Positions 3,785 to 63,011 of a stretch of 64,000 nt of DNA are shown here, one piece after another. Both the position numbers and the translations under genes were made by a program. The stretch is taken from the IMG/VR virus record IMGVR_UViG_3300045988_114702; one strand, written 5' to 3'. The stretch's first letter is position 1. The number at the start of each line of letters is the position of its first letter. Source of the DNA: a virus. The notes under the pieces were generated by a model. That model was given only the letters and a program-made list of their open reading frames with translations, did not search any database and was not told the DNA's origin.

Positions 3785-4248
3785 TTTTTTGCTACCCCCT
3801 TCGGCGGCAAAGGCATCCACCCAACCACGGGAGAATCCACACGGTTATTGTAAACGTCATCCGGGTTGAAATAACGATATTCCCACCAGCCTTTAGGGAT
3901 AAAGTAATCATCGCTTTCTTCATCGTAGGTTCCCCACTCGAAAATTTCTTCCCAGTAGAAAGCGCTCTTTTCGGACAAGACTGTGCCATCTTCGTAGTGA
4001 GCCGTCGTAATCCCATATCCACCGCAGGCGGTTTCAAACAGAATCAGCACATCCTCTTCGACTTTCGGGGGATTTGCTTCGGGATTTCGCCATTCCGGCC
4101 ACAGGCTTACCGTGGACGCAGCCGCCACTGTTTTCTGAGCGTCTTTATAAGCCGCGCTGGCCGCAGCACTGTGTCCCTGCATCAAGCATTCCTTGCGGAA
4201 GAACCTCGCCATCAGGTCATTAGCATCAATCGGCCTTTTCTCGGTCAT
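3781..4248 (-). CDS. DUF551-like protein
   Basis: The C-terminus reads GWMPLPPKGV. 155-aa ORF. Confidence 0.45.
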   Translation of the reverse strand: MTEKRPIDANDLMARFFRKECLMQGHSAAASAAYKDAQKTVAAASTVSLWPEWRNPEANPPKVEEDVLILFETACGGYGITTAHYEDGTVLSEKSAFYWEEIFEWGTYDEESDDYFIPKGWWEYRYFNPDDVYNNRVDSPVVGWMPLPPKGVAKK

Positions 4249-11835: not shown

Positions 11836-12810
11836 TCAGAAAAAGCTAAGTTGCCCACCCTTGCCCTCGGAGAACACCGGTTCCTGTTCCGGCGCTCTTT
11901 GCGGCTTTTTAGCGGCTTTTGGCTTTTCCGTGTTCTTTGGTTTCTCGAGATTTTTAGGAGCTTCAGGGGATTTTTGTGGTTCGGATTTTGGCGCATCTGC
12001 GACACGCTCTTTCCTTATCGGTTGAGTGACCAGTTCCATCTGCGCCATAAAGATTCGATATTGCCAAACCGGGATCCTGAGCATCGGCGTATACCAGACG
12101 TTCCCTTTGTCAACTGGAAGCAGCCCCCTTTTGTCATAAGACACAGACGGGCTTGCAAGCGTATCACCGATGACGACATACCCCGGCATTCCAAGCAGAC
12201 TCATTTGCAGATAGCACATCATGCCCACGATGTAGTCAATGTCCTGCGCCACAAACAGTACATCCGTCTGATAATTGATGCCTTTCTTTCTGCATTCGTT
12301 TGCGAACGCCACCAGCAAGGCCCCAGCGCCGCAGGTCGGATCACAGACCGCAACCCATCCCCTATCTCCGATTTTCTGCTGAAACTCTTCTGCGGGGGTC
12401 GTTACTGCGGACATGAACTCACACAGGTGGTAGGGCGTAAAGAATTGTCCTGCATGGTCGTTTCCAAGCCCCAAGCACATATACAACTCGCCAAGGAAGT
12501 CCTGTTCCGGGTTGTCCTCTAGTGCCACGACCAACAAGGCCAGCATTTCCGTAAATGCTTCCATTTCCGGCCGCGTGTATTTTCCTGCGATTGATAAGTA
12601 CTGCTTCTCGCGTTCGTCAAAGTGGCTCTGATCTGTCGCATTGGACACCGCAATAGCACTCATGGTGATCCAATCGCTCCAGACCTGCCAGCGTGACCGA
12701 CCATTGCTCGAAAACACTTCAAACTTTTTTACAAGTTCCTTCTGTGCTTCACCCCGGACATGGCGAACATCACTCCCCATTGGAATCGCCCCCTTTGCCC
12801 TGCGGAACAT
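11836..12810 (-). CDS. N6-DNA-methylase-like protein lacking an obvious NPPY/F motif, with K/P-rich tail
   Basis: SAM motif VCDPTCGAGALLVAF and the following AQDID...GDTL block are present. No NPP[YF] was found. The tail ends in GGQLSFF. The start could be the internal M at 12780. Confidence 0.6.
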   Translation of the reverse strand: MFRRAKGAIPMGSDVRHVRGEAQKELVKKFEVFSSNGRSRWQVWSDWITMSAIAVSNATDQSHFDEREKQYLSIAGKYTRPEMEAFTEMLALLVVALEDNPEQDFLGELYMCLGLGNDHAGQFFTPYHLCEFMSAVTTPAEEFQQKIGDRGWVAVCDPTCGAGALLVAFANECRKKGINYQTDVLFVAQDIDYIVGMMCYLQMSLLGMPGYVVIGDTLASPSVSYDKRGLLPVDKGNVWYTPMLRIPVWQYRIFMAQMELVTQPIRKERVADAPKSEPQKSPEAPKNLEKPKNTEKPKAAKKPQRAPEQEPVFSEGKGGQLSFF

Positions 12811-25893: not shown

Positions 25894-27006
25894 ATGCCCT
25901 GCTATAAAGACGAAAAAACGGGAACTTGGTATTGCCAGTTTCGATATACTGATTTCACCGGAGCGCAGAAGCAGAAGCGCAAGCGCGGCTTCAAAACCCG
26001 CCGCGAAGCGCAGGAGTGGGAGCGGGAATTTCATCTGCAGAAAGCCAAAAGCTGTGATATGACACTTGCCAGCTTTGTGGAGTTATACTTCAACGACCGG
26101 GAGCATCATGTCCGTGGCACCACAATGGACACTAAGCGAAATATTTTTGACACCAAAATTGTTCCGCTTCTCGGAAACCGGAAAATGAACGAAATCACAG
26201 CCCTGGACATTCGAGACTGGCAACAGCGGGTCAAGGAGATGGGCGAAGCCACTGGTCTGCCTTATGCGGAAACGTATCTCTATACCATTCATGCACAGTT
26301 GACTGCCCTCTTTAACTATGCCCAGACATTCTACGGTCTGCAATTCAATCCGTGCGATGCAGCCGGCTACATGGGGTCCTCTATCGCCGGTGAAATGCTT
26401 ATCATCACAAAAGACCAGTACGAGATTTTACGAAAAGAATTTCGCAATGAGGCCTATCTTCTGGCATTTGATATTCTATTCTGGACAGGATGCCGTGAAG
26501 GTGAAATGTTGGCGCTGCTGCCGAAAGACCTGACTGATGATGACCAGTTGCGAATCTATAAAACTTATCACCGGAAAAAGGGTCAAGACATTCTCGGCCC
26601 CACCAAGAATAGCAAAAAGGGCGGCAACAGAAATGTGCCTATCCCCCATTGGCTGGCAGAAGAATTTCGTACCTACTGTTCTAAACTATACGGCCTGACC
26701 CCAGATGACCGGGTATTTTACATGACCTGTACAGCCCTCAACAAAGAATTGACCCGCTGCACCCAGATAACCTATCTGCCGGACATTCGTGTCCACGATC
26801 TTCGGCACAGCCACGTTTCTCTCTGTATCGAACTTGGGTACTCTATTGTTCTGGTGGCCAAGCGGATAGGGGATACTGTTCCTGTTGTCATGCGGACATA
26901 CGCCCATCTGTACCCCAATAAGCAGCAGGAACTCGTGTCAAGGCTGGAAACTCTCAGTACTTCCTCTTCCTCCAAGGATGAATCCGATTTGATGCCACTC
27001 GTCTAA
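25894..27006 (+). CDS. int: Tyrosine recombinase / phage integrase
   Basis: The N-terminus YKDEKTGTWYCQFRY... is an integrase arm-binding-type domain. The C-terminal HDLRHSH and RTYAHLY carry catalytic His/Tyr motifs. AGGAGG RBS. Confidence 0.85.
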   Translation: MPCYKDEKTGTWYCQFRYTDFTGAQKQKRKRGFKTRREAQEWEREFHLQKAKSCDMTLASFVELYFNDREHHVRGTTMDTKRNIFDTKIVPLLGNRKMNEITALDIRDWQQRVKEMGEATGLPYAETYLYTIHAQLTALFNYAQTFYGLQFNPCDAAGYMGSSIAGEMLIITKDQYEILRKEFRNEAYLLAFDILFWTGCREGEMLALLPKDLTDDDQLRIYKTYHRKKGQDILGPTKNSKKGGNRNVPIPHWLAEEFRTYCSKLYGLTPDDRVFYMTCTALNKELTRCTQITYLPDIRVHDLRHSHVSLCIELGYSIVLVAKRIGDTVPVVMRTYAHLYPNKQQELVSRLETLSTSSSSKDESDLMPLV

Positions 27007-29776: not shown

Positions 29777-30108
29777 TACAGCTCACCTCCCATAAACAGA
29801 GTTTCCAGCACGCTCACACGCTCTTCCAGAGAGGGCGCAGCTTCATCAGCGGTCGTCCATGCTTCTGCATAGACCCACCAATCATCAGCCGCCGCCGTGA
29901 TGCTTTCCACGGTTTCCTCTGCATAATCGGAACCCAACTTGCAAAGAGCCGTGGTGCACTCCCACGAAGTACCGCCCTGCTCTCCTTCGGGAGCCTCGGT
30001 TCGTACCTCATGAGCGTCCTTACGCAGGTACAGCCAAGCCGTACCGTCCGGCAGTTTTTCCAGCGTTACCGCCTGCGGATTATGGTCAAGGTTCTCGGTA
30101 AAAATCAT
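29776..30108 (-). CDS. Acidic hypothetical protein in the XkdW position
   Basis: 110 aa. Forms an ATGA overlap with the RT stop and is followed by the XkdX-like ORF. Confidence 0.45.
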   Translation of the reverse strand: MIFTENLDHNPQAVTLEKLPDGTAWLYLRKDAHEVRTEAPEGEQGGTSWECTTALCKLGSDYAEETVESITAAADDWWVYAEAWTTADEAAPSLEERVSVLETLFMGGEL

Positions 30109-31349
30109 GCTGCTATCCTCACTTTCTTCATTGCATTTCTTTGTGTCGTTACGCGGATTGCTACTTTTGCGGCCGTGAACAGCTTTTTCTGTTTTAGGGC
30201 TTCGCTGATTGCACGAGATTTTGTCCAGTCAAAATAGCCGTTATAGCTGACCAGCTTGTATGACCGCCAGACCGGCACATATCCATTTCGTGAAACATCA
30301 GCCTTGGCTCGAATGTACTGCCGCCGAGCCCTCAGAAAAATTCTGGGGCGTATCGTGGTGTAGGTACGGTGCATCACATAGCCAGCCATATCCAAACCCG
30401 GGCATCCTTTTGCCGCTCCCGTTAGGTGTCTGCGTTGATGCTCTTCAGCGGCGCTAAGAAAGTCCACACGAACCCACTCGTTTTTTATTGTCAATCCCAG
30501 TTCGGTCAGCGCCCACTTAGTCAATTTTCGGGCTGCACTCTGTATGTCAGCCCATCGTCGGCCAAACAAAACAAGGTCATCCATATAGCTACCGCTGCGG
30601 ATCACGAATCGCGTGGATGCTCCACGGCGAATCTTTGCATAACTCATGACCTTGACCAGCATATAGCTGGCAACAAGGTTAAAAAGCCACGCTTCAAGAT
30701 AGCCGCCGATAAGCAATCCCTCACCCGGAGCCATTGCTAAAAGACATTTGACAACAGCCAGAAGCCATGTTGCTCCCGGGATTTCTTTCTGCAGGATCTT
30801 CATCACAAGTTCCTGTTTTGTGTGGGCGTATGCCCCCTGCACATCCAGCTTTATTGCATACTGTATGCCAAGACTTTTTCTGCGAAGCCAACGCTCGACT
30901 TGACGCTTCAAAGCGATTTGTCCCTTGCCGGGAATACTGGCAAATTGATACGGCAACAGTTTTGCCTGAAGCAACGGGCGAAGTCCAAGTACCGCCAAAT
31001 GCCCAAAAGCTTGGTGCATTGGACAGCAGTTAGACAGTTCCCGCCGTTTCATGCTGATTCCATCAATTCTGTAGAACACGCTCACAGGGTCAAGATCAAG
31101 GTCGTCTGTTTCTCCGTCCAACAAATCTTCTATCCGTTGCTCCATTTCAAGAGCAATCCCATTTACGGCTTCTAAACGCGGGTTCCAGTCGTTTACGCGG
31201 GCGGCGCTCGATAGTTGTGCACGGCTTACACCTCCATATTTTTCCACCGTAGCGAGGTAATCCCGGCGGAACCATTTCTTATCAAAAGCTTCAAGGACAG
31301 CACGCTCGCACATTTCATGATTGAGCGACAAGTACCTCTTTGTTTTCAT
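30105..31349 (-). CDS. Reverse transcriptase (DGR-type by context)
   Basis: YMDDLVLFG catalytic box, and upstream RT motifs (RRELSNCCPMHQAFGHLA...ASIPGKG). ATG at 31349 follows GGAGG (the ORF is open to TTG at 31382). Confidence 0.85.
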   Translation of the reverse strand: MKTKRYLSLNHEMCERAVLEAFDKKWFRRDYLATVEKYGGVSRAQLSSAARVNDWNPRLEAVNGIALEMEQRIEDLLDGETDDLDLDPVSVFYRIDGISMKRRELSNCCPMHQAFGHLAVLGLRPLLQAKLLPYQFASIPGKGQIALKRQVERWLRRKSLGIQYAIKLDVQGAYAHTKQELVMKILQKEIPGATWLLAVVKCLLAMAPGEGLLIGGYLEAWLFNLVASYMLVKVMSYAKIRRGASTRFVIRSGSYMDDLVLFGRRWADIQSAARKLTKWALTELGLTIKNEWVRVDFLSAAEEHQRRHLTGAAKGCPGLDMAGYVMHRTYTTIRPRIFLRARRQYIRAKADVSRNGYVPVWRSYKLVSYNGYFDWTKSRAISEALKQKKLFTAAKVAIRVTTQRNAMKKVRIAA

Positions 31350-31592
31350 ATCCTTAAAGCCTCCAAACTTGCTGATGTTCAACGGATTTCGGTTGCCGTT
31401 TCAGGCCTTAAATCAGGCAAAACGGATTTCTACTACTCACCGCCACGCAGTCCCAAAAACTGCGGCCACGCTCTCACCAATGCGTCCGTATATCTCGAAA
31501 CGCTCAGCTACATGGTGTCGGTATAACATGATCTTAGTGGTCAAGCCACAGGCGCAATGAAACGCTTATGCCCTTTTGAGGGCTATTTATCA

Positions 31593-31742
31593 TCAGCATT
31601 CCGGGGCACGCCGTTCCAGCTCGAGTTCGCCGGGGAATTGTTGCCATTCGCGCAAGGCAGGCCGCAGTTAGCACCGTCATTCAGGTTGCCACCGCGCCAC
31701 GGGGCGTACAGACCCGCCGAACTGGGCGAAATAAACGCAGCC
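31593..31742 (-). repeat. DGR template repeat (TR)
   Basis: Non-coding copy of VR. 22 of its 24 coding-sense adenines differ in VR. The ORF-track entry 31583-31804 is its pseudo-translation. Confidence 0.85.
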
Positions 31743-31772
31743 ACACGCCGCTTCATTGCTCCATAAAATAAT

Positions 31773-31808
31773 CGGCTTGCGCCGATGGTAAACCATCGGC
31801 GCAAGCTG
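31773..31808 (-). terminator. GC-rich hairpin (14-bp perfect stem) with T-rich trail on the minus strand
   Basis: GCTTGCGCCGATGG-TAAA-CCATCGGCGCAAGC, followed on the minus strand by GATTATTTTAT. Confidence 0.5.
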
Positions 31809-31827
31809 GGAAACGTGAACAGGGATT

Positions 31828-31863
31828 AGGGGGTTACACCCCCTCTATGTGCCTACGGCACAT
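31828..31863 (-). promoter_or_regulatory. Two tandem 7-bp hairpins with identical triloops just 3' of the VR gene stop
   Basis: AGGGGGT-TAC-ACCCCCT (31828-31844) and ATGTGCC-TAC-GGCACAT (31847-31863). Confidence 0.45.
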
Positions 31864-31865
31864 AT

Positions 31866-33593
31866 TCACCCTCTCTTTTTGCCCGAGCCAGCAAGCCGGG
31901 GCACGCCGCACCAGCCCGAGAACGCCGGGGAAACGCCGCCAAACGCGCAAGGCAGGCCGCAGCAAGCACCGCCATACAGGTAGCCACCGCACCAAGGGGC
32001 GCACAGACCCGCCGAACCGGGCGAAACAAACGCAGCCCGTACATAGGTGGAACCGCTGCCATTGAACTTTTCATACATCATGGCTTCCGTACCCAACTTG
32101 CCCAGCTTACGGATATAGTGCCACGACCAAGTCGCCTTGTCGTTCAGGTCGAAGGAGCCGGTCTGGGCATAGTCCGAGGAGATAGAACCAACCTGCTTCT
32201 CACCGCTCTTGCAGGAGAACACGTCATAGTGCCAGTGGTCATCGTCCACGATGCTGGCTTTCCACAGAGGGTCAAGCTGTTCCGTATAAGCGCCGATCTG
32301 CATCTCGATGCCGGCCACACGGTACGGATATTTTCCGTTCGTCAGATTACCCCGACATCCATCGCTATGTCCCTGCACGCCCTCTGTTGTGCCGGACTCC
32401 CACGGCATAGTAGATACCAGCATCGTGGTCGTAGTGTCGATAGGAGAATCCAACTCAAGGTTCAGAGCCACATACTCGGTCTCGCTCACGGTCACATTGG
32501 TAATGCTGGAAATCTTGGCCCAGTTGAAAATATTGTGATTATAGTCCGTGTTGCGGTCCGTTCCCGTATTCTCGCCACGCTCACCCATGCAAACAGCAGA
32601 GCCCACAAGGAAATTTGCCCCCTGCGCTTTCGTCACGAGCACTCGCTTTACTCCCGTTTCCGCCACAGCAGGGCTGTACTGGTAATTATAGACAGTGCAG
32701 CCCTCCAGCTTGCCGCTGTTGCTCAGCGTCCAATGGCGCAGCCGCCACTGCGCCAGAACATACTGCTGGTCGCAGTCAGTCCACAGGGCATCATAAGCGG
32801 TGATTTTACGAGCCAGAGGGATAGCAGCGTTGGCGCTTGTCCACGGCATCGGGGGCAGTCCAGCACCGCTGGTCATTCCACCCTTGGAATTTTTGCCGCC
32901 AAGGAAAGCCGGGTGCCATGTCAGCCAGCGGCGACTCTTATCAGGGGCCACATCGCCAGCCATAGGATCATAGCCGCCGCCCTCGAAGGTGCGGAAAGAG
33001 TTATACAGGTATGCGCCATCCTCCCACTCCTTCAGCATCAAGGACAGAGCGAAGCAGTAAACGGGTGCGGTTTCGCCGGAAAGATCAAACCCGGTTTCAC
33101 CCTCAACTGCCAGCACGTTCATCGTGCCATCTTCCAAGGACAGCGCATTGGCGCGAATGTACCATGTGAAAGGATCCTCTTCCGACCAGTCTGCGGTTTC
33201 CGGGCTGGTGTCAGTCAGAAGCGGAGCCGCTTCACGCCCGTCTGCCAGATCATCCAGCGGGGTGCCGGTGTAATCACCACTCACATCATCACTGTAGAAG
33301 CGAACGGTGTAGGTTTTGCTGCGAGCGCTCTCTGCGAGCATTTTCGCAAAGCGTTCCAGGCGCTGATACTTCGTCACGCCATCACCGGCAGACAGCGGCC
33401 ACCAGCTCCAGAAGATTTCTGTGGTATTTTTGCCATCCAGCAGACCGCGGAATGTTGCATCCACGAATTCTGCGCCGGCAGTACCGGCAGCAATGCCTGC
33501 CAAAATGTCATTTTGGCGTTTCATCTGAGCGGCCAGTTCCAGACCGGTTTCATCGCTCATAGGATGATTGATAAGTTCCCATGTGTCACCCAT
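31866..33593 (-). CDS. DGR target protein (putative receptor-binding fibre protein with variable C-terminus)
   Basis: 575 aa located in the fibre locus. The last about 50 codons are the VR (...CAPWCGGYLYGGACCGLPCAFGGVSPAFSGWCGVPRL...). Confidence 0.8.
   Translation of the reverse strand: MGDTWELINHPMSDETGLELAAQMKRQNDILAGIAAGTAGAEFVDATFRGLLDGKNTTEIFWSWWPLSAGDGVTKYQRLERFAKMLAESARSKTYTVRFYSDDVSGDYTGTPLDDLADGREAAPLLTDTSPETADWSEEDPFTWYIRANALSLEDGTMNVLAVEGETGFDLSGETAPVYCFALSLMLKEWEDGAYLYNSFRTFEGGGYDPMAGDVAPDKSRRWLTWHPAFLGGKNSKGGMTSGAGLPPMPWTSANAAIPLARKITAYDALWTDCDQQYVLAQWRLRHWTLSNSGKLEGCTVYNYQYSPAVAETGVKRVLVTKAQGANFLVGSAVCMGERGENTGTDRNTDYNHNIFNWAKISSITNVTVSETEYVALNLELDSPIDTTTTMLVSTMPWESGTTEGVQGHSDGCRGNLTNGKYPYRVAGIEMQIGAYTEQLDPLWKASIVDDDHWHYDVFSCKSGEKQVGSISSDYAQTGSFDLNDKATWSWHYIRKLGKLGTEAMMYEKFNGSGSTYVRAAFVSPGSAGLCAPWCGGYLYGGACCGLPCAFGGVSPAFSGWCGVPRLAGSGKKRG
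31888..32037 (-). repeat. DGR variable repeat (VR)
   Basis: Aligns to TR at an offset of 295 nt. There are 24 mismatches, 22 of them at TR adenines. Confidence 0.85.
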
Positions 33594-34737: not shown

Positions 34738-36078
34738 TCAGCCGATTCCATTTTCATCAGCGAATTTCAGAAGGGCTGCTCTTTCGATTTTAAGAAACTC
34801 TTCATAGTCGGCAGCGGGAAGTATCTCGAGAGCATCATCTTTTGGCAGTTCAGCCTTGATGGGAAGGCAATCCCCTATTTCGATGTACCGCCGGTTGTGA
34901 TAGTATGCGCTTGCAAGAACGCGGGCTTTATGAACCCAGCAGATGCCCGTAAAGCGTTTATTGGCTGTGCCGTACATCTCATAGTTCAAACCGGAACACC
35001 AGCCACAGCCGGCAGATACAGGGCAGTCAATACACTTCTGCTCAGACTGTGAGGTGAGGGTAATCGCATCGAGTTCTGCTTTAGCCTTGCGTTGGGAATC
35101 AGTGGTATACAGACCATCATAGACGCTGCCGAAGCGAACTTTCTTCGACTTTTCCTCGCCAATACTAATGGGTGCGTATCGAATGCAGGGGTACGCAGAT
35201 CCATCAGGAGCAAACGATAGCATAGAGCCCGTGCCACCACAAAAGTTGTGATTGTCTTTAGCTCTCCCCCCTAAGAGGCTGTCAAAAATTGTGACCAGCA
35301 CATCCAGCCTATTGTTCACAATGTAGTTAGCCACAATTTTCAATTGGCTGTACAAAACATAGCCATCTGACGGATTATAAAGAGGCTCATAAGCATAGTT
35401 ACAGGCAATGCTGTCGCATCCCTCATTCAGCATCATTATGATGCTATCTGCGATATACTTGAACGAACCGGGAACAAAAGTCATTTTCGTTGAACCGTTC
35501 CAGCCGTACTTTTTACTGTCCTGAAACGCTTTCCACGCCTTTGCGAAGCTTCCGTTTCCATGTTCATCAAGTCGGTACATATCATGAAGCTCCTGCACGC
35601 CGTCAATACTGACGGTAACGGACATCATTTCATGATATTTCTCAAAAAGGTGCTGCGCTTCAGGACTGAACCACAGCTGACCGTTTGTGGCAAACGAAAT
35701 TCTGGTAAACGGCGCAAGAGGGATACTGCGTTTCCAGCATTGCTCAAACCAGTAATCGCAGATGTATTCAATCAAGGGGGCTTCCAGCAAAGGCTCTCCC
35801 CCGATAAAGTCAAGAACAACGGCTTTTGTGTCTTGGTTGACGAAGTCAGAGGTGTTCTGCTTATACAGATCCAGCAGATAATCAACGATTCTTTTGCCGG
35901 TTTCGGGAGTCATACTCTCCGCTCCTTTGTGATGCTCGTAGCAATACGAACACCTGAGATTGCACCCGCTGGTCACCTGAAATGTAACATTGCGACAAGC
36001 ACTTCGCGTTTCAGGTAAATCACGGCAGTACAGTCTCTGGACAGAGTTTCCGTAATCCTCAAACCGTTTGCTTTTCAA
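34738..36078 (-). CDS. Radical SAM enzyme with C-terminal SPASM domain (peptide/protein maturase-like)
   Basis: CNLRCSYC (CX3CX2C). SPASM-type CGGTGSMLSFAPDGSAYPC and CIDCPVSAGCGWC. TTG at 36078 lies 9 nt after GGAGG (the ORF is open to GTG at 36132). Confidence 0.8.
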   Translation of the reverse strand: MKSKRFEDYGNSVQRLYCRDLPETRSACRNVTFQVTSGCNLRCSYCYEHHKGAESMTPETGKRIVDYLLDLYKQNTSDFVNQDTKAVVLDFIGGEPLLEAPLIEYICDYWFEQCWKRSIPLAPFTRISFATNGQLWFSPEAQHLFEKYHEMMSVTVSIDGVQELHDMYRLDEHGNGSFAKAWKAFQDSKKYGWNGSTKMTFVPGSFKYIADSIIMMLNEGCDSIACNYAYEPLYNPSDGYVLYSQLKIVANYIVNNRLDVLVTIFDSLLGGRAKDNHNFCGGTGSMLSFAPDGSAYPCIRYAPISIGEEKSKKVRFGSVYDGLYTTDSQRKAKAELDAITLTSQSEQKCIDCPVSAGCGWCSGLNYEMYGTANKRFTGICWVHKARVLASAYYHNRRYIEIGDCLPIKAELPKDDALEILPAADYEEFLKIERAALLKFADENGIG

Positions 36079-36361
36079 ACAACTGCACCTCCTTCCGTCC
36101 AAAGTCAAATTGGTATCCGTTGAAAGGTTCACTGCTCAAATCGATGTGGTTTTTCAGTACCGCGTTCTGCGCCATCTGCAGTTTCATGTGGGCCATACGG
36201 CACAGTTCCGCATAGTGCATGATAATTTCCTTTGTATCGGAGTTTGCTTTGGCGTTCAGTTGGCGGTTGAGTACTGCCATAATTTTTTCGTATGAATCAA
36301 CCTCATAAAATGCCCGTTCCACAGTCTCGCTTTCGACTTGGGACAGTTCAATAATCTTCAT
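36059..36361 (-). CDS. Small helical protein of the radical-SAM cassette
   Basis: 100 aa lying between the Cys-repeat gene and the maturase. Possibly the accessory protein of CXXX-repeat systems. Confidence 0.45.
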   Translation of the reverse strand: MKIIELSQVESETVERAFYEVDSYEKIMAVLNRQLNAKANSDTKEIIMHYAELCRMAHMKLQMAQNAVLKNHIDLSSEPFNGYQFDFGRKEVQLFEKQTV

Positions 36362-36972: not shown

Positions 36973-38076
36973 TTACCACAAAAGTCCTCCAGAACAATTT
37001 CCTCCACAACTCCCGCTGCAGCTACCACTACAGCTACCACTGCAGGAGCCAGAGCAACCGTCGCAACTGGTATCGCAACTGCTCGTACAGCGCTCGCCGC
37101 AGTGCGAATTGCATGAACCCTTGCAACTATTAGAACAGCCCGATTCACAGTTCAAAAGGCAACCTGAACCCGTGCAGGTTTCCTGACAGTCACTAGCGCA
37201 ATAGCTTTTGCAGTTCGTGGTACAGTTACTTGCACAGTCGTCTGCGCAATTTGCGCTACAGCTTCCCTCACAAGTACTTGAACATCCATCACAACTACCA
37301 GAACATCCTCCCTTGCAGGATGTCTTGCAATTGTTAGTGCAGTTATCCGCACACGTCTTTGTACAGCTTCCTGTGCAACTACCAGTACAAGTGCCTACGC
37401 ACGTTCCAGCGCATGTACCTGTGCAACCGCCAGCACAACTTCCCCCGCAGTCATTGGCACACGTCTTCGTACAGGTTCCTGTGCAGGTGCCGGTACAGCT
37501 GCCAGTACAGGTGCCTGTACAGGTGCTGGTACAGTCGTTGGCGCACGACTTAGTGCAGGAACCCGTGCAAGTCCCTGTGCAAGTGCTCACACAAGAGCCG
37601 GTGCATGAGCCGGTGCAATCATTGGCACAGCTTTTTGTGCACGAGCCGGTACAGCCTCCCGTACATGAGCCGGTACAGCTGGAACAGGCTGAATAGCAAC
37701 CCGTAGTGCAGAGCCCCGAGCAAGCCCCGCCGCAGCCGCTGGATGTTGCAGTTTCAGAAATCGCGCTCAATTGGCTAAGCAGTGCAGCCGCCCGGGTGAG
37801 CACATCTGCAGCGACCTTGGAGCCGTTTTCCGGTGTGATAGCGCTTCCGGTAATCGCCGAGATAGGCTGTGTAATTTTCTGGATGTGCTCATTGGTAATT
37901 TGCCTACCGGCCGCAGGGACGACAGAAAAAGAACTGATATAAGCCGCCATGCTTCCAACGCTCTGGCCCTGTCCTGTCCCTTCGCTTTTTCCGCGACGAT
38001 TAAGTTCAGCGTCCAGCTGTTTTTTAAGTTCTGTGTAGTCGGCCGAGTAAACCTTTGTGCTTCTTTGAGCCATCAC
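36973..38076 (-). CDS. CXXX-repeat protein (367 aa, 63 Cys)
   Basis: A 114-aa ordinary N-terminus is followed by 63 Cys spaced CX3 almost without interruption (CTGSCTGSCTKSCANDC...). The ATG overlaps the tail-fibre stop. Confidence 0.7.
   Translation of the reverse strand: MMAQRSTKVYSADYTELKKQLDAELNRRGKSEGTGQGQSVGSMAAYISSFSVVPAAGRQITNEHIQKITQPISAITGSAITPENGSKVAADVLTRAAALLSQLSAISETATSSGCGGACSGLCTTGCYSACSSCTGSCTGGCTGSCTKSCANDCTGSCTGSCVSTCTGTCTGSCTKSCANDCTSTCTGTCTGSCTGTCTGTCTKTCANDCGGSCAGGCTGTCAGTCVGTCTGSCTGSCTKTCADNCTNNCKTSCKGGCSGSCDGCSSTCEGSCSANCADDCASNCTTNCKSYCASDCQETCTGSGCLLNCESGCSNSCKGSCNSHCGERCTSSCDTSCDGCSGSCSGSCSGSCSGSCGGNCSGGLLW
36994..37734 (-). repeat. 12-nt-periodic coding tandem repeat (TGY-NNN-NNN-NNN)n
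   Basis: This is the DNA encoding the CXXX tract. It also produces spurious VQLPVQ-type ORFs on the opposite strand. Confidence 0.7.
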
Positions 38077-54681: not shown

Positions 54682-54758
54682 TGGTGCTGGAGGTGGGGAT
54701 TGAACCCACAGCCTGACGGTTACAAATCGCCTGCTCTGTCCTATTGAGCTACACCAGC
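54682..54758 (-). tRNA. tRNA-Thr (anticodon UGU), CCA encoded
   Basis: Manual cloverleaf: acceptor GCTGGTG/CTCCAGC (one T-T mismatch), D arm GCTC/GAGC, anticodon loop TTTGTAA, T arm GTGGG-TTCAATC-CCCAC. Confidence 0.7.
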
Positions 54759-54765
54759 GTAAAAG

Positions 54766-54838
54766 CCGAGGGTACCGGGCTCGAACCGGCGGTCTGGGAG
54801 TCAAAGGCCCATGCCTTATCCAACTTGGCCAACCCTCG
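54766..54838 (-). tRNA. tRNA-Gln (anticodon UUG), no encoded CCA
   Basis: Acceptor CGAGGGT/ACCCTCG, anticodon arm TGGGC-CTTTGAC-TCCCA, T loop TTCGAGC. Resembles Firmicutes tRNA-Gln. Confidence 0.65.
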
Positions 54839-54841
54839 ATA

Positions 54842-54917
54842 TGGAGCAGTCAACGGGGCTTGAACCCGCGGCATCCTGCTTGGAGGGCAGGCGCTCTACC
54901 AACTGAGCTATGACTGC
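54842..54917 (-). tRNA. tRNA-Gly-like (anticodon UCC) with unusual C at position 33, CCA encoded
   Basis: Acceptor GCAGTCA/TGACTGC, discriminator T, anticodon arm CCTGC-CCTCCAA-GCAGG, T arm GCGGG-TTCAAGC-CCCGT. Confidence 0.6.
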
Positions 54918-54982: not shown

Positions 54983-55180
54983 TTAGTCAAACACCTTTTT
55001 GCCTTCGGCAAACTTCTTTTTAGCTTCGTTCAGGCTGATGCGGTTATAACCGCCGCGATAATCAGGATCCGCTCTCTGCACGCCATCATTTACCCAGCCG
55101 CACACGGGGCATTCCTCAAAATCGTTGTCTTCATCAAAGCTATGCTGCCCACATACCGGGCAGAGGATTTTCTCAGTCAT
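54983..55180 (-). CDS. CPCC-family cysteine-rich small protein
   Basis: MTEKILCPVCGQHSFDEDNDFEECPVCGWVNDGVQ. ATG follows GGAAGGAA. Confidence 0.5.
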   Translation of the reverse strand: MTEKILCPVCGQHSFDEDNDFEECPVCGWVNDGVQRADPDYRGGYNRISLNEAKKKFAEGKKVFD

Positions 55181-57512
55181 CTTCGATTCCTTCCAATTCA
55201 AGCTGACGTTTATAGTAATCTTCCCCATCGTCAGGCTTGAACATCGTTCTTACGCCCTTCTCTGGGGAACCTTTTGCAAAGTCATTTTTCTTCGCGTCAT
55301 ACCGGCACACAAGGCCATCTTTTGTCTTGTAGCCTTTTATACCGTTTCCGCACGGGCTTTCCAAAAGTTGAACCGCCCGCTTTTCGTACTGCTCCTTTGT
55401 TGTAATGCCATCGGGAGCGTACTCAGCGGCGTGGGTTCTTCCATTCTGCCAGTGGTTGTTCAGTTTCTGCTTGTTGGGGAAACCTTTCACCTTGAAAATG
55501 TTCGCGCCTTTTGCCGAAACTGCGTTAGAATTTATTTTAGCATGACTTTGAGAATCATTCAAGTCTTTTGATGAATTTTCCTCGCTCGATACATCTTTTG
55601 ATGATGTAGAACCGCCAGAACTGGAGAACTTTCCATCTTCATCGCGGTTGTGCTTGCTCTCGTCAAAATCATCCAGTGTAATGCCCAGCCGGTCAAGGTA
55701 TTCTTTCACGCTTCTGAGAAACGGTTCAAACACAAGTCCACCGGGCACATCCTGTTTCAAAATCTGTTCAGGGGGCATCCATGTAGCCGTGAACATCTCC
55801 TTTTGGTCACACCGAGGAACGCCATCGAAGCCATTGACGAGATAGATCTGAACGGGAAGCACCTCATCCGGCTTGCCCTTGCAGTTGCCGAGATAGGTAA
55901 TATCTCCCACGTCAATATTGAACTCTTCCTTTGCTTCCCGGCGGAATGCCACGCTCGGCGTTTCCCCGGGTTCGATGTGACCGCCGGGGCCGCACCAGCC
56001 TTGCCCATCGGAGCGTTGGCCGCAGAGGATTTTTCCATCATTCAGAACGAAGCCGGCAACATAACCGCAGTCACCTTCATCCGTAACCAGGTTGCCTGCC
56101 GCAGGCGGGTTCTGCGGATTGGTCGGCTGGGGAACGTCAGCCTCGCCCAAGCCCCAGTCCTGATTAACATCTGCTTCCGTGATGATGTTTTCAGGGTCAA
56201 ACTGTTCATCCTGCGCCAAGGACTGGCGAACCTCGGGGATTTCCAAAATACCAGCCGTAACGTATGTAGATACAGTCTGTGCTCTGGTAAGCTGGGCCGC
56301 GGCATTTGCCTGGTCCTGCGTAGCCTTTTCATCATCAGACAGGCTCCATGCGCTCTTGTAGGTGATAGTGTACTCCGGCACCTCTTTGATTTCGCCGTTC
56401 CACACCATTCCGCGCAGAATCAGTTCGACCAGCGTGCGGGTGTTGTCCCGGAGGTCGCCAGACTGGATGCCGGACACGGCTTCCTTATAGTTCTCCATGT
56501 CCCCTTCGCCGGTGGCATTTTCACCCGCTGGGGAACGGCCAAAGAGCCTAGTCTGCGGGATATGGCTCACAGCAGACAGCATTGCGCAGGCATTGTCCAG
56601 AATGTCCTTAACACCAGCCACAGACAGGGATTGAATGCCCACATCCTCGCCATCTGCATCAATAAAGACCATGTTCAACAGATTACGGGCAAGGTCAAGC
56701 ATCTCCATACGCTGAAGAACCGTATCGTCACCGTCTACTGTAGACAGGACATTTGCGAGATTCTTCATTTTGTATGTCACCATTGACAGCCGTTCCAGCA
56801 AGCGAATGGAGTAGCCCGGACCGATGCAGGCGTTGCGAAGTTCTTCGCGGATGTGCATATACTCCGGAATGCCCCATGTACGGTAGAGGTTGGCCATCGT
56901 GGAGCCTTCGGGGATCTCCCCGTTATGGAATATCAGGCAGCGGGAAGAATGCACCACATAGCTGCCGTACACGCTGTTCACCTGGTAAAACTCCGGGATG
57001 CCCGTACCGCCTTTGCGGTAGTTTTCATCGTCAGGGTTGTTCTCATAGCCGTTGATCCACAGCGGGAACACCTCGTTGCGGCCGTAAACCAGCAATTCTG
57101 CCACGCCGTGAACATCCCGCCAGTTCAGCGGATCCTGAAGAAGTCTGCCATCGTCCACCAGCATAACAACAGCGGAGCCACCGAACAGACGCGCCCATTT
57201 CAGCGCCTTTGCAAGTTTGCTTTGGTAGTGAATGGTCTGCAGGTGGTCATCCAGCCGCTTTTGTAGGTCTTTATCCTTGATACCCAGGTCAATGCCATTC
57301 TTGGTGGCATCATCCGCTGGGGCATCAATGATGGTCGAAAACAGACCATTTCCTGCATAAAGGTCGGCCAGTTCCGCGTCTGTCACAGCAGCACCAGTTG
57401 CCCACTGGTAATACTCGGTGCTATCGTGCTGGGTGCCATACTTGTTCAGGACGTTGTAATAGCCATCGAGGCGAAGTTGTGGTTTGATTTTACCGGCAAT
57501 AACTTTTTTCAC
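55173..57512 (-). CDS. Portal protein (DUF1073-like) fused to a Nudix hydrolase domain and a C-terminal module
   Basis: N-terminal about 440 aa are portal-like. Nudix box GGHIEPGETPSVAFRREAKEEFNI at aa 509-532 (about 55698-56072). A Ser-rich linker and a 115-aa C-terminal domain follow. Confidence 0.7.
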   Translation of the reverse strand: MKKVIAGKIKPQLRLDGYYNVLNKYGTQHDSTEYYQWATGAAVTDAELADLYAGNGLFSTIIDAPADDATKNGIDLGIKDKDLQKRLDDHLQTIHYQSKLAKALKWARLFGGSAVVMLVDDGRLLQDPLNWRDVHGVAELLVYGRNEVFPLWINGYENNPDDENYRKGGTGIPEFYQVNSVYGSYVVHSSRCLIFHNGEIPEGSTMANLYRTWGIPEYMHIREELRNACIGPGYSIRLLERLSMVTYKMKNLANVLSTVDGDDTVLQRMEMLDLARNLLNMVFIDADGEDVGIQSLSVAGVKDILDNACAMLSAVSHIPQTRLFGRSPAGENATGEGDMENYKEAVSGIQSGDLRDNTRTLVELILRGMVWNGEIKEVPEYTITYKSAWSLSDDEKATQDQANAAAQLTRAQTVSTYVTAGILEIPEVRQSLAQDEQFDPENIITEADVNQDWGLGEADVPQPTNPQNPPAAGNLVTDEGDCGYVAGFVLNDGKILCGQRSDGQGWCGPGGHIEPGETPSVAFRREAKEEFNIDVGDITYLGNCKGKPDEVLPVQIYLVNGFDGVPRCDQKEMFTATWMPPEQILKQDVPGGLVFEPFLRSVKEYLDRLGITLDDFDESKHNRDEDGKFSSSGGSTSSKDVSSEENSSKDLNDSQSHAKINSNAVSAKGANIFKVKGFPNKQKLNNHWQNGRTHAAEYAPDGITTKEQYEKRAVQLLESPCGNGIKGYKTKDGLVCRYDAKKNDFAKGSPEKGVRTMFKPDDGEDYYKRQLELEGIEDD

Positions 57513-59752: not shown

Positions 59753-59865
59753 CTACATCGCCACCACTATCCTTCTTCATTTTCTGTCCCGGTATCTACC
59801 CGGGCTGTTGTGTTGTTCCGAAGAAAAAGCGCCGACCCTTTGTAGAGCCGGCGCCGCGTCCCCTC

Positions 59866-60327
59866 TCACACGACCTTTGCGAGAGCGGTTTTAGAGATCA
59901 TCAGGTTTCCCAGTTCCACGGCCAGGAATGTGCCCGCGAACAGGCCAGCACTTGTCAGCCAGAACGGCGCGCCGACCATCATAGACAGCTCCACACCGAT
60001 GAACAGAGCCACGGACAGGGAGAGAATAACCGCTTTCCACAGAATCCCCAGCTTTTTCCACGGCCCCCAGACCACCAGTGCGTATGCAGTCCCCTCAGCC
60101 AACAGACCAAAGAGCACATCGACCGGGCCGAAAGGACTCGTTGCGTTTGCGATTGCAATTCCCAACAGCACCGCCGGGGCATACCGTTTATCCTTGAACG
60201 GGAGCGCACACAGCATATTGGCCACGCGGAACTGCACAGCTCCCCAGGACAGCGGGTTCAGGGTAGTTAATGCGACATACAGAGCCGCGACAACTGCAGT
60301 TTGGCAGAGGGCTTTGGTGTTTTTCAT
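59866..60327 (-). CDS. queT: QueT-like queuosine-precursor transporter (membrane)
   Basis: The five-to-six TM pattern and the N-terminus TKALCQTAVVAALYVALTTLNPLSWGAVQFRVANML resemble the QueT family. Confidence 0.55.
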   Translation of the reverse strand: MKNTKALCQTAVVAALYVALTTLNPLSWGAVQFRVANMLCALPFKDKRYAPAVLLGIAIANATSPFGPVDVLFGLLAEGTAYALVVWGPWKKLGILWKAVILSLSVALFIGVELSMMVGAPFWLTSAGLFAGTFLAVELGNLMISKTALAKVV

Positions 60328-60341
60328 GTTCCCTGTCCCCC

Positions 60342-60653
60342 TCATACCATAACGACCACATTACCGTGGGGTGCGTCATTCACCGCGGATTCGACCATGA
60401 TCCAGCTGGGGTGCACTTCCTCAACCAGCTTTTTCTTCAGCTTGCTGGCCGCTTCCTCGATGACCAGGCTTTCACCTTCCAGACATTCGCGGATGAACTT
60501 GTCGATCTCGCAGTAGTCCGGGATAATCTCTGCCGGCTCCATGGTCACGGTAAATTCATTGGTGTAGTCTGCCTTTCCGATGGGGCAGAAGCACCGGCAT
60601 TTCTGCTTGTAGACGATTTTTCGCACGCCGTAGCGATTTTCAAACTTAGCCAT
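60342..60653 (-). CDS. QueF-like T-fold protein (preQ0 reductase-like)
   Basis: CFCPIGKADY aligns by eye with the QueF catalytic CPxTGQPDF. The later IEE aligns with the QueF FHE. ATG follows AAGGAGAAG. Confidence 0.45.
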   Translation of the reverse strand: MAKFENRYGVRKIVYKQKCRCFCPIGKADYTNEFTVTMEPAEIIPDYCEIDKFIRECLEGESLVIEEAASKLKKKLVEEVHPSWIMVESAVNDAPHGNVVVMV

Positions 60654-61512
60654 TGTTTTCTTCTCCTTTCGGCTTCTGAACGATGAACAGCAGTTCTTTT
60701 GCCTCACGCGGGAACGGAATCGCCATAAAGGCTGTGAGGAATGCAGACGGGACATAGGCTTTCATGCGGGTGTAGAAGTCCCGCAGTGCCGGTTCCTGCT
60801 TGGAATAGAACTCGTCCATCTCCCGGACGCTGGTGACCAGACCAACCTCCTGCACAATGCTGAATCCGATTTCGGCCAGCTTGGCTTTCAGTTCATCGTA
60901 GCCCCACTCATAGACATGAGCGCGGTACTGGGTCTGATACCCATTGCCCGGGGTGTTCGGACAGGAGAGAAACATCTTTGCACCCGGCTTCATCACCTTG
61001 TAGCATTCTGCAAGGCTTTTTGCGCCGTCCGTAGGGTGCATATGCTCAATGGCAGAGGTGTAAATCACAAAATCGGCAAACCCCGCCGGGATGACTTTCG
61101 ACATCTCAGCAACGTTGCCCAGCTTCCAACCCACCCGGAACGGGTAGTAGGAAGTCAGATCTTTAGGTTCAAGGTTCTTTGCGGTTGCGCCGCGCATAGC
61201 CTCTTTGATGTTCGCTTTGCTGATGTCTACGCCGGTATAGGATGCAATATCCTTTGCGTAGTAGCGCAGCAGCGGGAGCATCAGAGAGCGGCCGCAGCAC
61301 ACATCCAGCACGTTCATGCCCTTTTTCGCCATGTGGGCGGCGGCAAGGTGCTGGATATAGTTCATTACGTCCAGATTGGTGAAGAAACCGTCTCTGAACT
61401 GCATATAAAAATTCCGCATCTGGTAGGTGGTGCAGAGAATTTTTTCTCTGTCCATGCCATCCTCAACGCGGTATACGATATCTTTATCCACGCCATTTTC
61501 CTTTCGTATCAA
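60646..61512 (-). CDS. Class I SAM-dependent methyltransferase
   Basis: Motif I VLDVCCGRSLM and the later VIYTSAIEHM. Start uncertain (TTG 61512, GTG 61491 or ATG 61455). Confidence 0.65.
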   Translation of the reverse strand: MIRKENGVDKDIVYRVEDGMDREKILCTTYQMRNFYMQFRDGFFTNLDVMNYIQHLAAAHMAKKGMNVLDVCCGRSLMLPLLRYYAKDIASYTGVDISKANIKEAMRGATAKNLEPKDLTSYYPFRVGWKLGNVAEMSKVIPAGFADFVIYTSAIEHMHPTDGAKSLAECYKVMKPGAKMFLSCPNTPGNGYQTQYRAHVYEWGYDELKAKLAEIGFSIVQEVGLVTSVREMDEFYSKQEPALRDFYTRMKAYVPSAFLTAFMAIPFPREAKELLFIVQKPKGEENNG

Positions 61513-62233
61513 GGTACTTCTGGTATTTGATCCACTCTTTCAGCGCATACTCTCGGCGAATCCGGTAGTCTGCGCCTATCATGCCCTTCGGGGGTCTGAC
61601 CACAACCATTTCTGAGCCGTTGAAGTAGGACAAGCCGCCAAAATTGACCTGTGTAGTCCATGTGGTGCTATCCACGCTATAAAAGCCAAAGTCAACCGCG
61701 TCCTTTTTGGTGTAGCCCAGACCGTGCACCCGCACCCCGCAGGCGTTCGCATACTGCACCAGCCGTTTGATGTAGCCGTACTCGCTGGGCTGAATGTGCT
61801 TGATTGCGAAGCCGCCGATGCCGATATAGGGATAGTCCCTGCACAGGCGCTTGAACTCGTCAAGGCCGCGGGAGCGGTGCCAGACGGGAATGCTCTGCTT
61901 GCCCGTTTCGGCTTCAAGGCGGGTTCTCATGCGCTTTACCGCATCATAACCTACGATGATATCTACGTCCAACTCGAAGAAGTGTTGCACGTTGTGGCGG
62001 TTGATGAAGCCGATATACCTGCTCAGGTACCCGTCCCAATCCACTGGCTTTGATGAAGCCTCTACCCCGTGCATAAACGTGAATGCCCCGCTGTCGAGCA
62101 GGAACATCTTCCACTTCGGCATTTCCTCGACCTGCCACGGCTTGATATAGAAAAAGCTCTCCAGAACGTACTCCGGCCTGTTTTCCCGCACGATTTTCTC
62201 TGACGGGAATGTTCCCGCCAAACACAGCCTCAT
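61484..62233 (-). CDS. TGT-superfamily / DpdA-like putative DNA transglycosylase
   Basis: LLDSGAFT, ELDV, IGIGG, VHGLG and SVDSTTW blocks resemble TIM-barrel TGT/DpdA motifs. Confidence 0.45.
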   Translation of the reverse strand: MRLCLAGTFPSEKIVRENRPEYVLESFFYIKPWQVEEMPKWKMFLLDSGAFTFMHGVEASSKPVDWDGYLSRYIGFINRHNVQHFFELDVDIIVGYDAVKRMRTRLEAETGKQSIPVWHRSRGLDEFKRLCRDYPYIGIGGFAIKHIQPSEYGYIKRLVQYANACGVRVHGLGYTKKDAVDFGFYSVDSTTWTTQVNFGGLSYFNGSEMVVVRPPKGMIGADYRIRREYALKEWIKYQKYLDTKGKWRG

Positions 62234-62817
62234 GTTTCAAACCATTCTCCGCAGTGCGGGCACTGGATAAGCTTAGAGCCGCTCTGTTGCGCCGTAGCGG
62301 GCTGAAAAGGTGCAGGCTGTCCAGATTGCTGGCTTTCGGGGTCCGGGCCTGTATCGGTCGCTTTGGGCGGCTGTTGGGCAGGCTCCGTGAAAAACTCCTC
62401 AAAATCAGAATCGTCCACATCCCGGAGCAGACCATCAAGTTCCACTTCGCTGAAGCCAGTGCTGCTCAGATCTACATCCAGCGCCTGCAATGCATCCATT
62501 TCGGCGCGGAGCACATCATCATTCCAAGAGGATGCCTCTGCCACCTTGTTGTCTGCAATGCGGTATGCCTTAATCTGCGCGTCCGTCAGGTCATCGACCC
62601 GGATGCAGGGCACTTTGTCCATGCCCAGCCGTTTTGCGGCCTCATAGCGGGTGTGTCCGGCAATGATCGTGCCTTTTCCATCAATCAAGATGGGCACCCG
62701 GAATCCAAATTCCTTGATGCTTTGGGCTACCGGACCAACGGCTGCTTCGTTGTTTCTGGGGTTGTTCTCATAGGGATGGATCTGCGAAATATCCTGATAC
62801 ACTACTTGCTGATTCAT
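62230..62817 (-). CDS. ParB-like N-terminal (nuclease/Srx) domain protein
   Basis: ISQIHPYENNPRNN...IIAGHTRYEAAKRLG is a ParB N-terminal signature. C-terminal CPHCG. ATG follows AAGGGAGAAAAA. Confidence 0.65.
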   Translation of the reverse strand: MNQQVVYQDISQIHPYENNPRNNEAAVGPVAQSIKEFGFRVPILIDGKGTIIAGHTRYEAAKRLGMDKVPCIRVDDLTDAQIKAYRIADNKVAEASSWNDDVLRAEMDALQALDVDLSSTGFSEVELDGLLRDVDDSDFEEFFTEPAQQPPKATDTGPDPESQQSGQPAPFQPATAQQSGSKLIQCPHCGEWFET

Positions 62818-63011
62818 TTTTTCTCCCTTCTTTGCTTTTCCGCTGGCGTTGCGGAACAAATTAGGGAGCGGCGGTATCTTTCCTCCTTTCTGGGCATAAA
62901 AATACCCGTCCGGTGGCGAAACCGGGCGGGCAATGCGCTATGATTAGAATTTTACGGTATTATTGTACCACTTTTGCCGTGACGCGTCCATGACATCTTT
63001 TTGACATCGGA

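Follow-up and report, generated by a model that had tools for sequence, protein, structure and literature searches.

The 64,000-nucleotide stretch of viral DNA analyzed here (IMG/VR record IMGVR_UViG_3300045988_114702; the window, at its full length) carries a five-gene operon encoding a ParB-like protein, the DNA guanine transglycosylase DpdA, a class I S-adenosylmethionine (SAM)-dependent methyltransferase, a QueF-L-like T-fold protein and the transporter subunit QueT. We propose, with a probability that we put at roughly 0.55, that this operon feeds 7-deazaguanine modification of DNA entirely by salvage in a temperate phage of Faecalibacterium. DpdA-based 7-deazaguanine modification of DNA is an established anti-restriction strategy, and the known enzymes that tailor the base are few (QueF, Gat-QueC, ArcS2, DpdC, DpdL, DpdM and DpdN). 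The T-fold protein belongs to a sizeable unannotated family (209 clusters), which gene order links to DpdA and also to two transporters that are unrelated to each other. We see in it a strong candidate for an enzyme still missing from this set, and perhaps the way to a new DNA base.

In the pathway that we propose, QueT, energized by the energy-coupling factor (ECF) module of the host, would import preQ0 and/or preQ1, which the host cannot make, and the phage copy would be free of the preQ1-riboswitch control that acts in the host. The acidic T-fold protein would capture or process the imported base, using a Cys (in thioimide-type chemistry) and a Glu and dispensing with NADPH, and the methyltransferase would methylate the base or its product. 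DpdA, probably aided by the ParB-like NTPase, would then exchange guanines of the phage DNA for the tailored base, and DNA modified in this way would be protected from restriction.

Phage 7-deazaguanine modification by DpdA, the idea of salvage and a phage-encoded QueT (that of Streptococcus phage Dp-1) are all already known. What is new is a T-fold family with strict linkage to such modules, a class I methyltransferase in the place of DpdM, and the presence of the module in prophages of a gut commensal that is predicted to be a queuosine auxotroph. The literature searched on DpdA with QueT, or on Faecalibacterium phages with 7-deazaguanine, yielded no description of the module.

The operon and its DNA guanine transglycosylase

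An earlier note, made from the letters of the sequence, had placed four consecutive genes at 59866-62233, encoding a DpdA-like member of the tRNA-guanine transglycosylase (TGT) superfamily, a class I methyltransferase, a T-fold protein and a QueT-like transporter. All four open reading frames (ORFs) were confirmed on the minus strand of that interval, with profile or structure matches that bear out the identities (Table 1). The chain of overlaps between successive genes also takes in the ParB-like gene upstream of dpdA, and the operon therefore comprises five genes rather than four. The overlaps measure 4–8 nt, with start/stop overlaps that read, in gene order, ATGA, GTGGATAA, ATGGCTAA and ATGA, the first of which joins the ParB-like gene to dpdA; the operon is translationally coupled. 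Because the gene order is conserved in 77 related loci, these are not chance ORFs. At three of the genes the start codon allows a choice. The longest methyltransferase ORF spans 60646-61512, and its 99%-identical homologues begin at the GTG at 61491, which is the likely start (281 amino acids). The ParB-like protein has 209 amino acids when read from a TTG and 195 from the ATG at 62817, the more likely true start, and a downstream ATG would make QueT 153 amino acids long.

The transglycosylase carries the motifs FLLDSGAFTF, VHGLG and SVDSTTW, and it matches phrog_887 (E 1.8e-53). It is 29% identical over 200 amino acids to the DpdA of Enterobacteria phage 9g (E 2e-14 by BLASTP, 8e-8 by tblastn), with which it has the motifs LDSGAF, P-W/F-H, VHG-G and DS(T/S)xW in common. 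Five residues, D47 (of LDSGAF), D91, H119, H170 and D188 (of DSTT), are invariant in nine homologues, among them the DpdA of Dp-1, and D47, D91, H119 and D188 are common to the 9g enzyme as well. The active site of Salmonella DpdA consists of three Asp, among them the general acid and the nucleophile, and one His, which with an Asp recognizes the base (Asp95, Asp130, His181 and Asp256 in S. Montevideo; PMC10164549), to which D47, D91, H119 and D188 would be equivalent. By sequence comparison, the enzyme groups with 9g-type DpdA and not with bacterial TGT, and it has no match to PF01702 in Pfam. The earlier note's view of a 7-deazaguanine module centered on a DpdA-like protein is supported.

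These results also bear on whether the module instead boosts queuosine in tRNA for the benefit of phage translation and modifies no DNA. Such a role was historically proposed for Dp-1 and Rosebush (PMC5699537), and it is the role that the PHROG and GenBank names of the enzyme, 'queuine tRNA-ribosyltransferase', would imply. We consider it highly improbable, given the grouping with 9g-type DpdA, the coupling of its gene to that of a ParB-like protein, which recalls the DpdA/DpdB pair (PMC10164549), and the finding that all tested DpdA phages modify their DNA (PMC6884629, PMC10516641). In addition, none of the three tRNA genes of the phage (for Thr, Gln and Gly) belongs to the GUN-anticodon set that is modified with queuosine.

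The ParB-like protein, which has a GxxRxxA-type motif (GHTRYEA), is encoded upstream of DpdA in 73 of the 77 loci, as well as in Fusobacterium phage phiFN37, in gut phage MT835752 and in the divergent locus L011. In the bacterial Dpd system, DpdA requires the ParB-superfamily ATPase DpdB (PMC10164549), and the phage protein is possibly a DpdB-like NTPase partner of DpdA. None of the DpdB models matched it (DpdB is roughly twice as large), and for that reason we take the likeness no further than analogy. More broadly, the operon resembles the DpdA/DpdB/DpdC system of Salmonella Montevideo in pairing a transglycosylase with a ParB-superfamily protein and in having a separate candidate enzyme for tailoring preQ0, and some bacterial dpd clusters embed a yhhQ transporter gene (PMC10164549, PMC5699537). 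The phage operon differs in its much smaller ParB-like protein and in having neither DpdC nor restriction genes.

Precursor supply and the host

QueT matches PF06177 over profile positions 1-136 of 141 (E 1.7e-27; 96.9 bits against a cut-off of 33.7) and phrog_27044 (E 6.7e-67), and it is homologous to the QueT of Dp-1 (E 3.8e-20). Pfam scans of the window ORFs turned up no ECF A or T component. FolE, QueD, QueE and QueC, which the earlier note had not seen in the window, were likewise absent from Pfam scans of the minus-strand ORFs at 1-24 kb, the integrase ORF and ten late-region ORFs, and searches of all six frames of the window with phmmer and with small hidden Markov models (HMMs) built from the enzymes of Dp-1 and other phages recovered no enzyme of de novo preQ0 synthesis. 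A weak match to the QueE HMM at 34738-36132 was rejected as QueE, being a radical SAM/SPASM peptide maturase. The 77 related loci were also devoid of QueD, QueE and FolE.

Relatives of the operon show what else can occupy its place. The short-clade DpdAs of MT835752 and of phiFN37, an oral/gut relative, are 36-38% identical to the window DpdA and have other companion genes. In MT835752 (L007, 3018-8279), QueC-QueD-QueE-FolE lie between ParB-DpdA and TerS-TerL. In phiFN37 (L006, 5456-7765), which is known from annotation only and has the closest architecture among known systems, ParB-DpdA is followed by a DUF6884 (DpdC-like) protein and the transporter YhhQ, a set whose predicted product is dADG made from salvaged preQ0. 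Like the window operon, that of phiFN37 has a DpdA (38% identical) with ParB upstream, then a tailoring gene and a transporter gene, and no de novo genes nearby; unlike it, phiFN37 uses DpdC-like tailoring and YhhQ and has neither T-fold protein nor methyltransferase. This pattern of swaps fits a modular slot for supply plus tailoring. In one relative of the window operon, L011 (radical SAM-ParB-DpdA-methyltransferase-T-fold-YhhQ), QueT itself is replaced by the non-homologous YhhQ (Vut_1). The QueT/YhhQ exchange, the QueC-QueD-QueE-FolE set of MT835752 and the DpdC-like protein with YhhQ of phiFN37 tie the parts to one pathway.

Import of the precursor by the phage, as the earlier note had suggested, is well supported, because QueT can be exchanged for YhhQ, because the same slot can hold QueC-QueD-QueE-FolE, because the host is a predicted auxotroph and because de novo genes are lacking. 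The note's description of this supply route as unusual was overstated, since salvage had been proposed before for phages that encode only DpdA and for phages that encode YhhQ (PMC6884629, PMC5699537), and since queT adjoins dpdA in Dp-1. Phage 9g, of the Queuovirinae, combines DpdA with Gat-QueC and FolE/QueD/QueE to place dG+ in its DNA; its DpdA is homologous to that of the window, and the logic of inserting a 7-deazaguanine, tailoring its nitrile and gaining protection from restriction would be the same. However, 9g synthesizes preQ0 de novo and relies on Gat-QueC, whereas the window, devoid of synthesis genes, encodes a transporter along with a SAM methyltransferase and the QueF-L-like T-fold protein. 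Phage Dp-1 (QueF-QueC-QueD-QueE-FolE-QueT-DpdA, yielding dPreQ1 in DNA) shares with the window the annotated adjacency of QueT and DpdA, homologous QueTs and a Firmicute host, but it has the full de novo pathway, a canonical QueF with the NADPH motif and no methyltransferase, and its DpdA, which is of a different clade, does not match that of the window directly.

The host genus is Faecalibacterium. Metagenome-assembled genomes of Faecalibacterium hold T-fold proteins 100% and 96% identical to that of the window, and in F. prausnitzii strain 2, whose chromosome is complete (NZ_CP186691.1), the module lies around 2.34-2.36 Mb, with a 67%-identical T-fold relative; this cultured strain offers a testable system. 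Among 50,697 phage records, Faecalibacterium phage Roos alone gave a DNA match, in its terminase. Pfam identified an integrase of the tyrosine type, with an Arm DNA-binding domain, at 25894-27006 (+), which shows the phage to be temperate. With the integrase in its middle, no host genes seen in it and relatives on contigs of 55-64 kb, the window has the appearance of a temperate phage genome, ~60 kb long and in excised permutation.

Rodionov et al. scored F. prausnitzii as a queuosine non-producer in 5/5 genomes (PMC6593275), and Faecalibacterium is accordingly a predicted queuosine auxotroph. The phage would thus hypermodify its genome in a host that cannot make the precursor, and would therefore be a competitor of bacteria, and in the end of the human host too, for the queuosine-precursor micronutrients of the gut. 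The queT gene of F. prausnitzii is the type example of control by a preQ1-III riboswitch (PMC11625349), and searches of the phage operon and of the sequence upstream of it revealed no preQ1 riboswitch at either gathering or E-value thresholds. Homology searches with the window QueT reached only phage-type QueTs and drew no link to the riboswitch-controlled QueT of the host.

The T-fold family and its candidate chemistry

The T-fold protein contains the CPIGKADY segment cited in the earlier note, although it is 103 rather than 104 amino acids long. As a single sequence it has no match in Pfam, NCBIfam, PHROG or PADLOC, and a search of the PDB came back empty. Its AlphaFold2 model, with a predicted local distance difference test (pLDDT) score of 90.9 and the order beta-beta-alpha-alpha-beta-beta, was matched best by Foldseek to QueF-L (5jyx; template-modeling (TM) score 0.85 both ways, root-mean-square deviation 1.5 Å, 22% identity), followed by GTP cyclohydrolase I domains and then by unimodular QueF (4f8b, TMq 0.77). 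A profile search of 1.84 billion representatives defined a family of 209 clusters at 50% identity (E <= 1e-3), nearly all of them 100-110 amino acids long, and the family profile retrieved QueF-L from the PDB over its full length (E 2.9e-4). Direct comparison of the family with single Dp-1 QueF and FolE sequences by hhalign gave low probabilities (30% and 7%), and tblastn with four diverse members found no match in 50,697 GenBank phage records. Because no phage QueF had previously aligned with QueF-L (PMC10516641), this is the first phage group on that side of the superfamily.

Gene order ties the family to DpdA and to transport. The 77 loci with a close T-fold relative, which lie on at least three different phage structural backbones, encode DpdA in 77 cases, the methyltransferase in 76, QueT in 74 and YhhQ in 2. 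Among the distant members (28-44% identity; Table 1), YhhQ is adjacent in 6/7 loci with readable flanks, and in the remaining one, L083, a single gene (QueC) separates it from the T-fold gene; DpdA was present in 5/5 of the distant loci long enough to reveal it. Several distant representatives lay on contigs too short for gene context, and scans of viral contigs with single distant members returned 0-1 loci each. From these arrangements it follows that DpdA, a transporter and the T-fold protein form the constant core, to which a methyltransferase or a canonical QueC (with SGGxDS and the Cys cluster) is added as a variable extra. The family accompanies two DpdA clades, the short one of the window and a Dp-1-like one. 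At one locus, L082, a zinc-type oxidoreductase of the alcohol-dehydrogenase family (3201-3980) adjoins QueC. Apparent fusions of methyltransferase and T-fold protein among methyltransferase homologues of 381-426 amino acids were rejected as chimeric or frameshifted calls.

In a comparison of 95 diverse members, all have E66 and H96 (95/95), C23 is present in 94/95, G26, D46, Y47 and N6 are nearly invariant, and Y30 occurs in 85/95. C23 aligns with Cys21 of QueF-L and with the Cys of QueF CPKTGQPD, and E66 with Glu63 of QueF-L, the Glu of its His-Glu pair; near-invariant Cys, Glu, His, Asp and Tyr residues suggest catalysis. Archaeal QueF-L is the non-reducing archaeosine synthase, which uses ammonium to turn preQ0 held in nucleic acid into the amidine. 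The family shares with QueF-L (Pyrobaculum calidifontis, 5jyx/5k0p) a unimodular T-fold of ~100 amino acids, the aligned Cys and Glu and the lack of an NADPH motif. It departs from QueF-L in having Tyr for Asp28 and Ile for His, an invariant His96 and a D46-Y47 pair of its own, an acidic composition (median net charge -6, median pI 4.9), and a setting in DNA rather than tRNA modification. On this evidence the family appears to sit on the QueF-L side with its own active-site constellation, and its acidity speaks weakly for a free base as substrate and against direct binding of nucleic acid.

The earlier note had assigned to this protein the QueF reaction, the reduction of preQ0 to preQ1. In its full form this alternative holds that the T-fold protein is a QueF analogue acting on imported preQ0, that the methyltransferase N-methylates the product in place of DpdM, and that DpdA installs dPreQ1 or its methylated form. 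We judge this unlikely. The NADPH motif E(S/L)K(S/A)hK(L/Y)(Y/F/W), kept by every validated phage QueF (PMC10516641) and present as ESKSLKLY in that of Dp-1, which served as control, was found in 0/95 members, where its two Lys positions are C/I/L and D/E/Q; the N-terminal extension of QueF is missing; neither the Asp nor the His of QueF is kept; and the model is nearer to QueF-L than to QueF. The alternative does gain from four distant loci (L083, L082, L080 and L085) in which the T-fold protein accompanies canonical QueC and a transporter, much like the bacterial set QueC+QueF+TGT for salvage of 7-carboxy-7-deazaguanine (CDG) (PMC6593275). The DpdA of L083 shares 48% identity with its counterpart in Dp-1, a phage that carries dPreQ1 in its DNA (PMC6884629), and such Dp-1-like contexts favor a reductase-like role; the oxidoreductase beside QueC in L082 could supply reductant in trans. 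The methylated base mdPreQ1 is known from phages (PMC10516641). With the QueF step unsupported, methylated preQ1, which the earlier note had offered as the product, becomes one of several possible products.

Our own tentative choice, possible but far from assured, is an NADPH-independent conversion of the preQ0 nitrile, of amidine or amide type, followed by methylation. A preQ0 substrate and thioimide-type chemistry would be expected because the Cys and Glu are kept, because QueC is a partner in some modules and because the fold is QueF-L-like, and action on the free base, as opposed to DNA, because the Asp and His are missing, the surface is acidic and the transporter gene is constantly adjacent. 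The same features may leave space for new chemistry or for a carrier role, since a protein without the Asp and His kept in both QueF and QueF-L could perform a different reaction or could merely bind the base. The final DNA base may be new.

A carrier role is central to another alternative, in which the imported base is preQ1, the form that Faecalibacterium normally takes up, methylated or inserted directly, and the T-fold protein, no nitrile enzyme, acts as a carrier or trap that holds the base beside the transporter and hands it on, or catalyzes an unrelated reaction. QueT has been reported to be specific for preQ1, and host queT is under the control of a preQ1 riboswitch (PMC11625349). No gene neighbors that of the transporter more constantly than the T-fold gene, and the family is acidic and lacks a cofactor motif; in addition, QueF-L and free preQ0 form a thioimide that persists without reacting further (PMC5485725), which shows that such proteins can hold the base. 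Yet the near-invariant residues suggest catalysis, a pure preQ1 carrier would have no obvious need of a covalent Cys, and transporters of the YhhQ type also import preQ0 (PMC11130926). We regard this alternative as quite unlikely.

Several findings weigh against the salvage pathway that we favor, and against a nitrile-directed T-fold enzyme in particular. If QueT carries preQ1 only, as a review states (PMC11625349), such an enzyme would be left without a substrate. Asp28 of QueF-L, a general acid/base seven residues past the Cys, aligns with Tyr30 of the T-fold protein, and the His of the His-Glu pair (for both roles, PMC5485725) is replaced by Ile, Val or Leu. Some T-fold modules combine QueC with a DpdA that shares 48% identity with the Dp-1 enzyme and have the T-fold gene in the place of QueF. 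Searches of Pfam, NCBIfam, PADLOC and PDB sequences returned nothing for the window DpdA, and its profile retrieved no relatives by sequence from the PDB; its TIM-barrel TGT fold is predicted from homology. Lastly, the methyltransferase has a generic fold (nearest TM ~0.5) and is dispensable in the modules L080, L082, L083, L085 and L087.

The AlphaFold2 model of the methyltransferase is Rossmann-type (pLDDT 87.3), and Foldseek placed it, at the TM scores just given, among natural-product methyltransferases, ToxA, cap guanine-N7 methyltransferases and generic class I enzymes; the sequence retrieved no relatives from the PDB. Phage modules with DpdM likewise tie a methyltransferase to DpdA (PMC10516641). 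DpdM, however, is a DUF3109 metal-binding protein with a CxxxCxxCC motif, whereas the window enzyme matches Methyltransf_23/11/25 and has a Rossmann-type model, which led us to reject it as DpdM. Pfam scans of the ORFs at ~1-24 kb, 25.9-27.0 kb, part of 28.7-41.4 kb and 58.9-62.9 kb gave no DUF3109 match. Its acceptor could be either the free base or DNA.

If the salvage pathway is taken to its furthest consequence, the T-fold family could add to the QueF superfamily a third functional line, neither nitrile reductase nor archaeosine synthase, that together with the methyltransferase makes a 7-deazaguanine DNA base beyond the eight known (for example a C7 methylated amidine, amide or ester), all from a micronutrient scavenged in the gut and in prophages of a human commensal that ranks among the most abundant. 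We advance this as a speculative possibility, with the odds against it.

Feature coordinates and other genes of the window

Table 1. Features of the operon and its surroundings (window positions) and gene orders of distant T-fold loci (aa, amino acids).
Feature	Position	Strand	Basis or gene order
Promoter-like site (TGGACG, 17 nt, TACAAT, with TG), upstream of ParB-like gene	62962..62990	-	Consensus scan, weak pattern match only
ParB N-terminal-domain protein	62230..62859	-	PF02195 E 1.6e-7; phrog_620 E 1.1e-62
DpdA, 9g-type DNA guanine transglycosylase, 249 aa	61484..62233	-	phrog_887; 9g DpdA homology
Class I SAM-dependent methyltransferase, 281 aa from GTG	60646..61491	-	Methyltransf_23/11/25/31
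QueF-L-like T-fold protein, 103 aa	60342..60653	-	AlphaFold2, Foldseek and family profile
QueT, S-component of ECF-type queuosine-precursor transporter, 159 aa	59866..60345	-	PF06177
Intrinsic-terminator-like hairpin, after queT and before terS	59828..59855	-	12 pairs, 8 G-C, T-run
tRNA genes Thr-UGU, Gln-UUG, Gly-UCC (n=3)	54682-54917	-	
Distant T-fold locus L083			YhhQ-QueC-T-fold-DpdA
Distant T-fold locus L082			YhhQ-T-fold-DpdA-QueC
Distant T-fold locus L080			DpdA-QueC-T-fold-YhhQ
Distant T-fold locus L085			ParB-DpdA-QueC-T-fold-YhhQ
Distant T-fold locus L087			DpdA-YhhQ-T-fold
Distant T-fold loci L086, L088			T-fold adjoins YhhQ, short contigs

Elsewhere in the window, an N6-adenine DNA methyltransferase-like gene at 11836-12810 (-) (PF02384, E 3.4e-7) suggests a second, ordinary defense by DNA methylation. 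At 7191-8180 (-), next to a gene for the DNA polymerase III beta clamp, lies a gene for a protein resembling DUF5131 and 'radical SAM mobile pair protein A', whose CxxxCxxC motif reads GCLKDCRYCYA; in L011, another radical SAM gene, not the same one, stands immediately 5' of the ParB-DpdA module. The portal protein ORF at 55173-57512 (-) encodes 779 amino acids with a long C-terminal extension and a NUDIX-like motif (GPGGHIEPGETPSVAFRREAKEEF), and its equivalents in the relatives L001-L004 are annotated as Phage_portal_3 plus NUDIX.

The window also holds a diversity-generating retroelement at 30105-33593 (-), with a reverse transcriptase at 30105-31382 (RVT_1; phrog_1423). Its template repeat at 31594-31742 (149 nt) matches a variable repeat at 31889-32037 that falls within the 3' end of a 575-amino-acid ORF (31866-33593), and 21/23 mismatches between the two repeats are at template adenines.

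In the late/tail block, an ORF of 367 amino acids at 36973-38076 (-) contains 63 cysteines in long CxxxC repeats (CTGSCTGSCTKSCANDC...). The peptide maturase that the QueE HMM had touched (34738-36132, -), a radical SAM/SPASM protein of 464 amino acids, lies ~840 bases downstream of it, beyond two small ORFs, and belongs to the 'CXXX-repeat target' family (TIGR04115, E 9.8e-88; phrog_1802). A protein of the phage structural region may thus be cross-linked by a maturase of the type that acts on ribosomally synthesized and post-translationally modified peptides (RiPPs).

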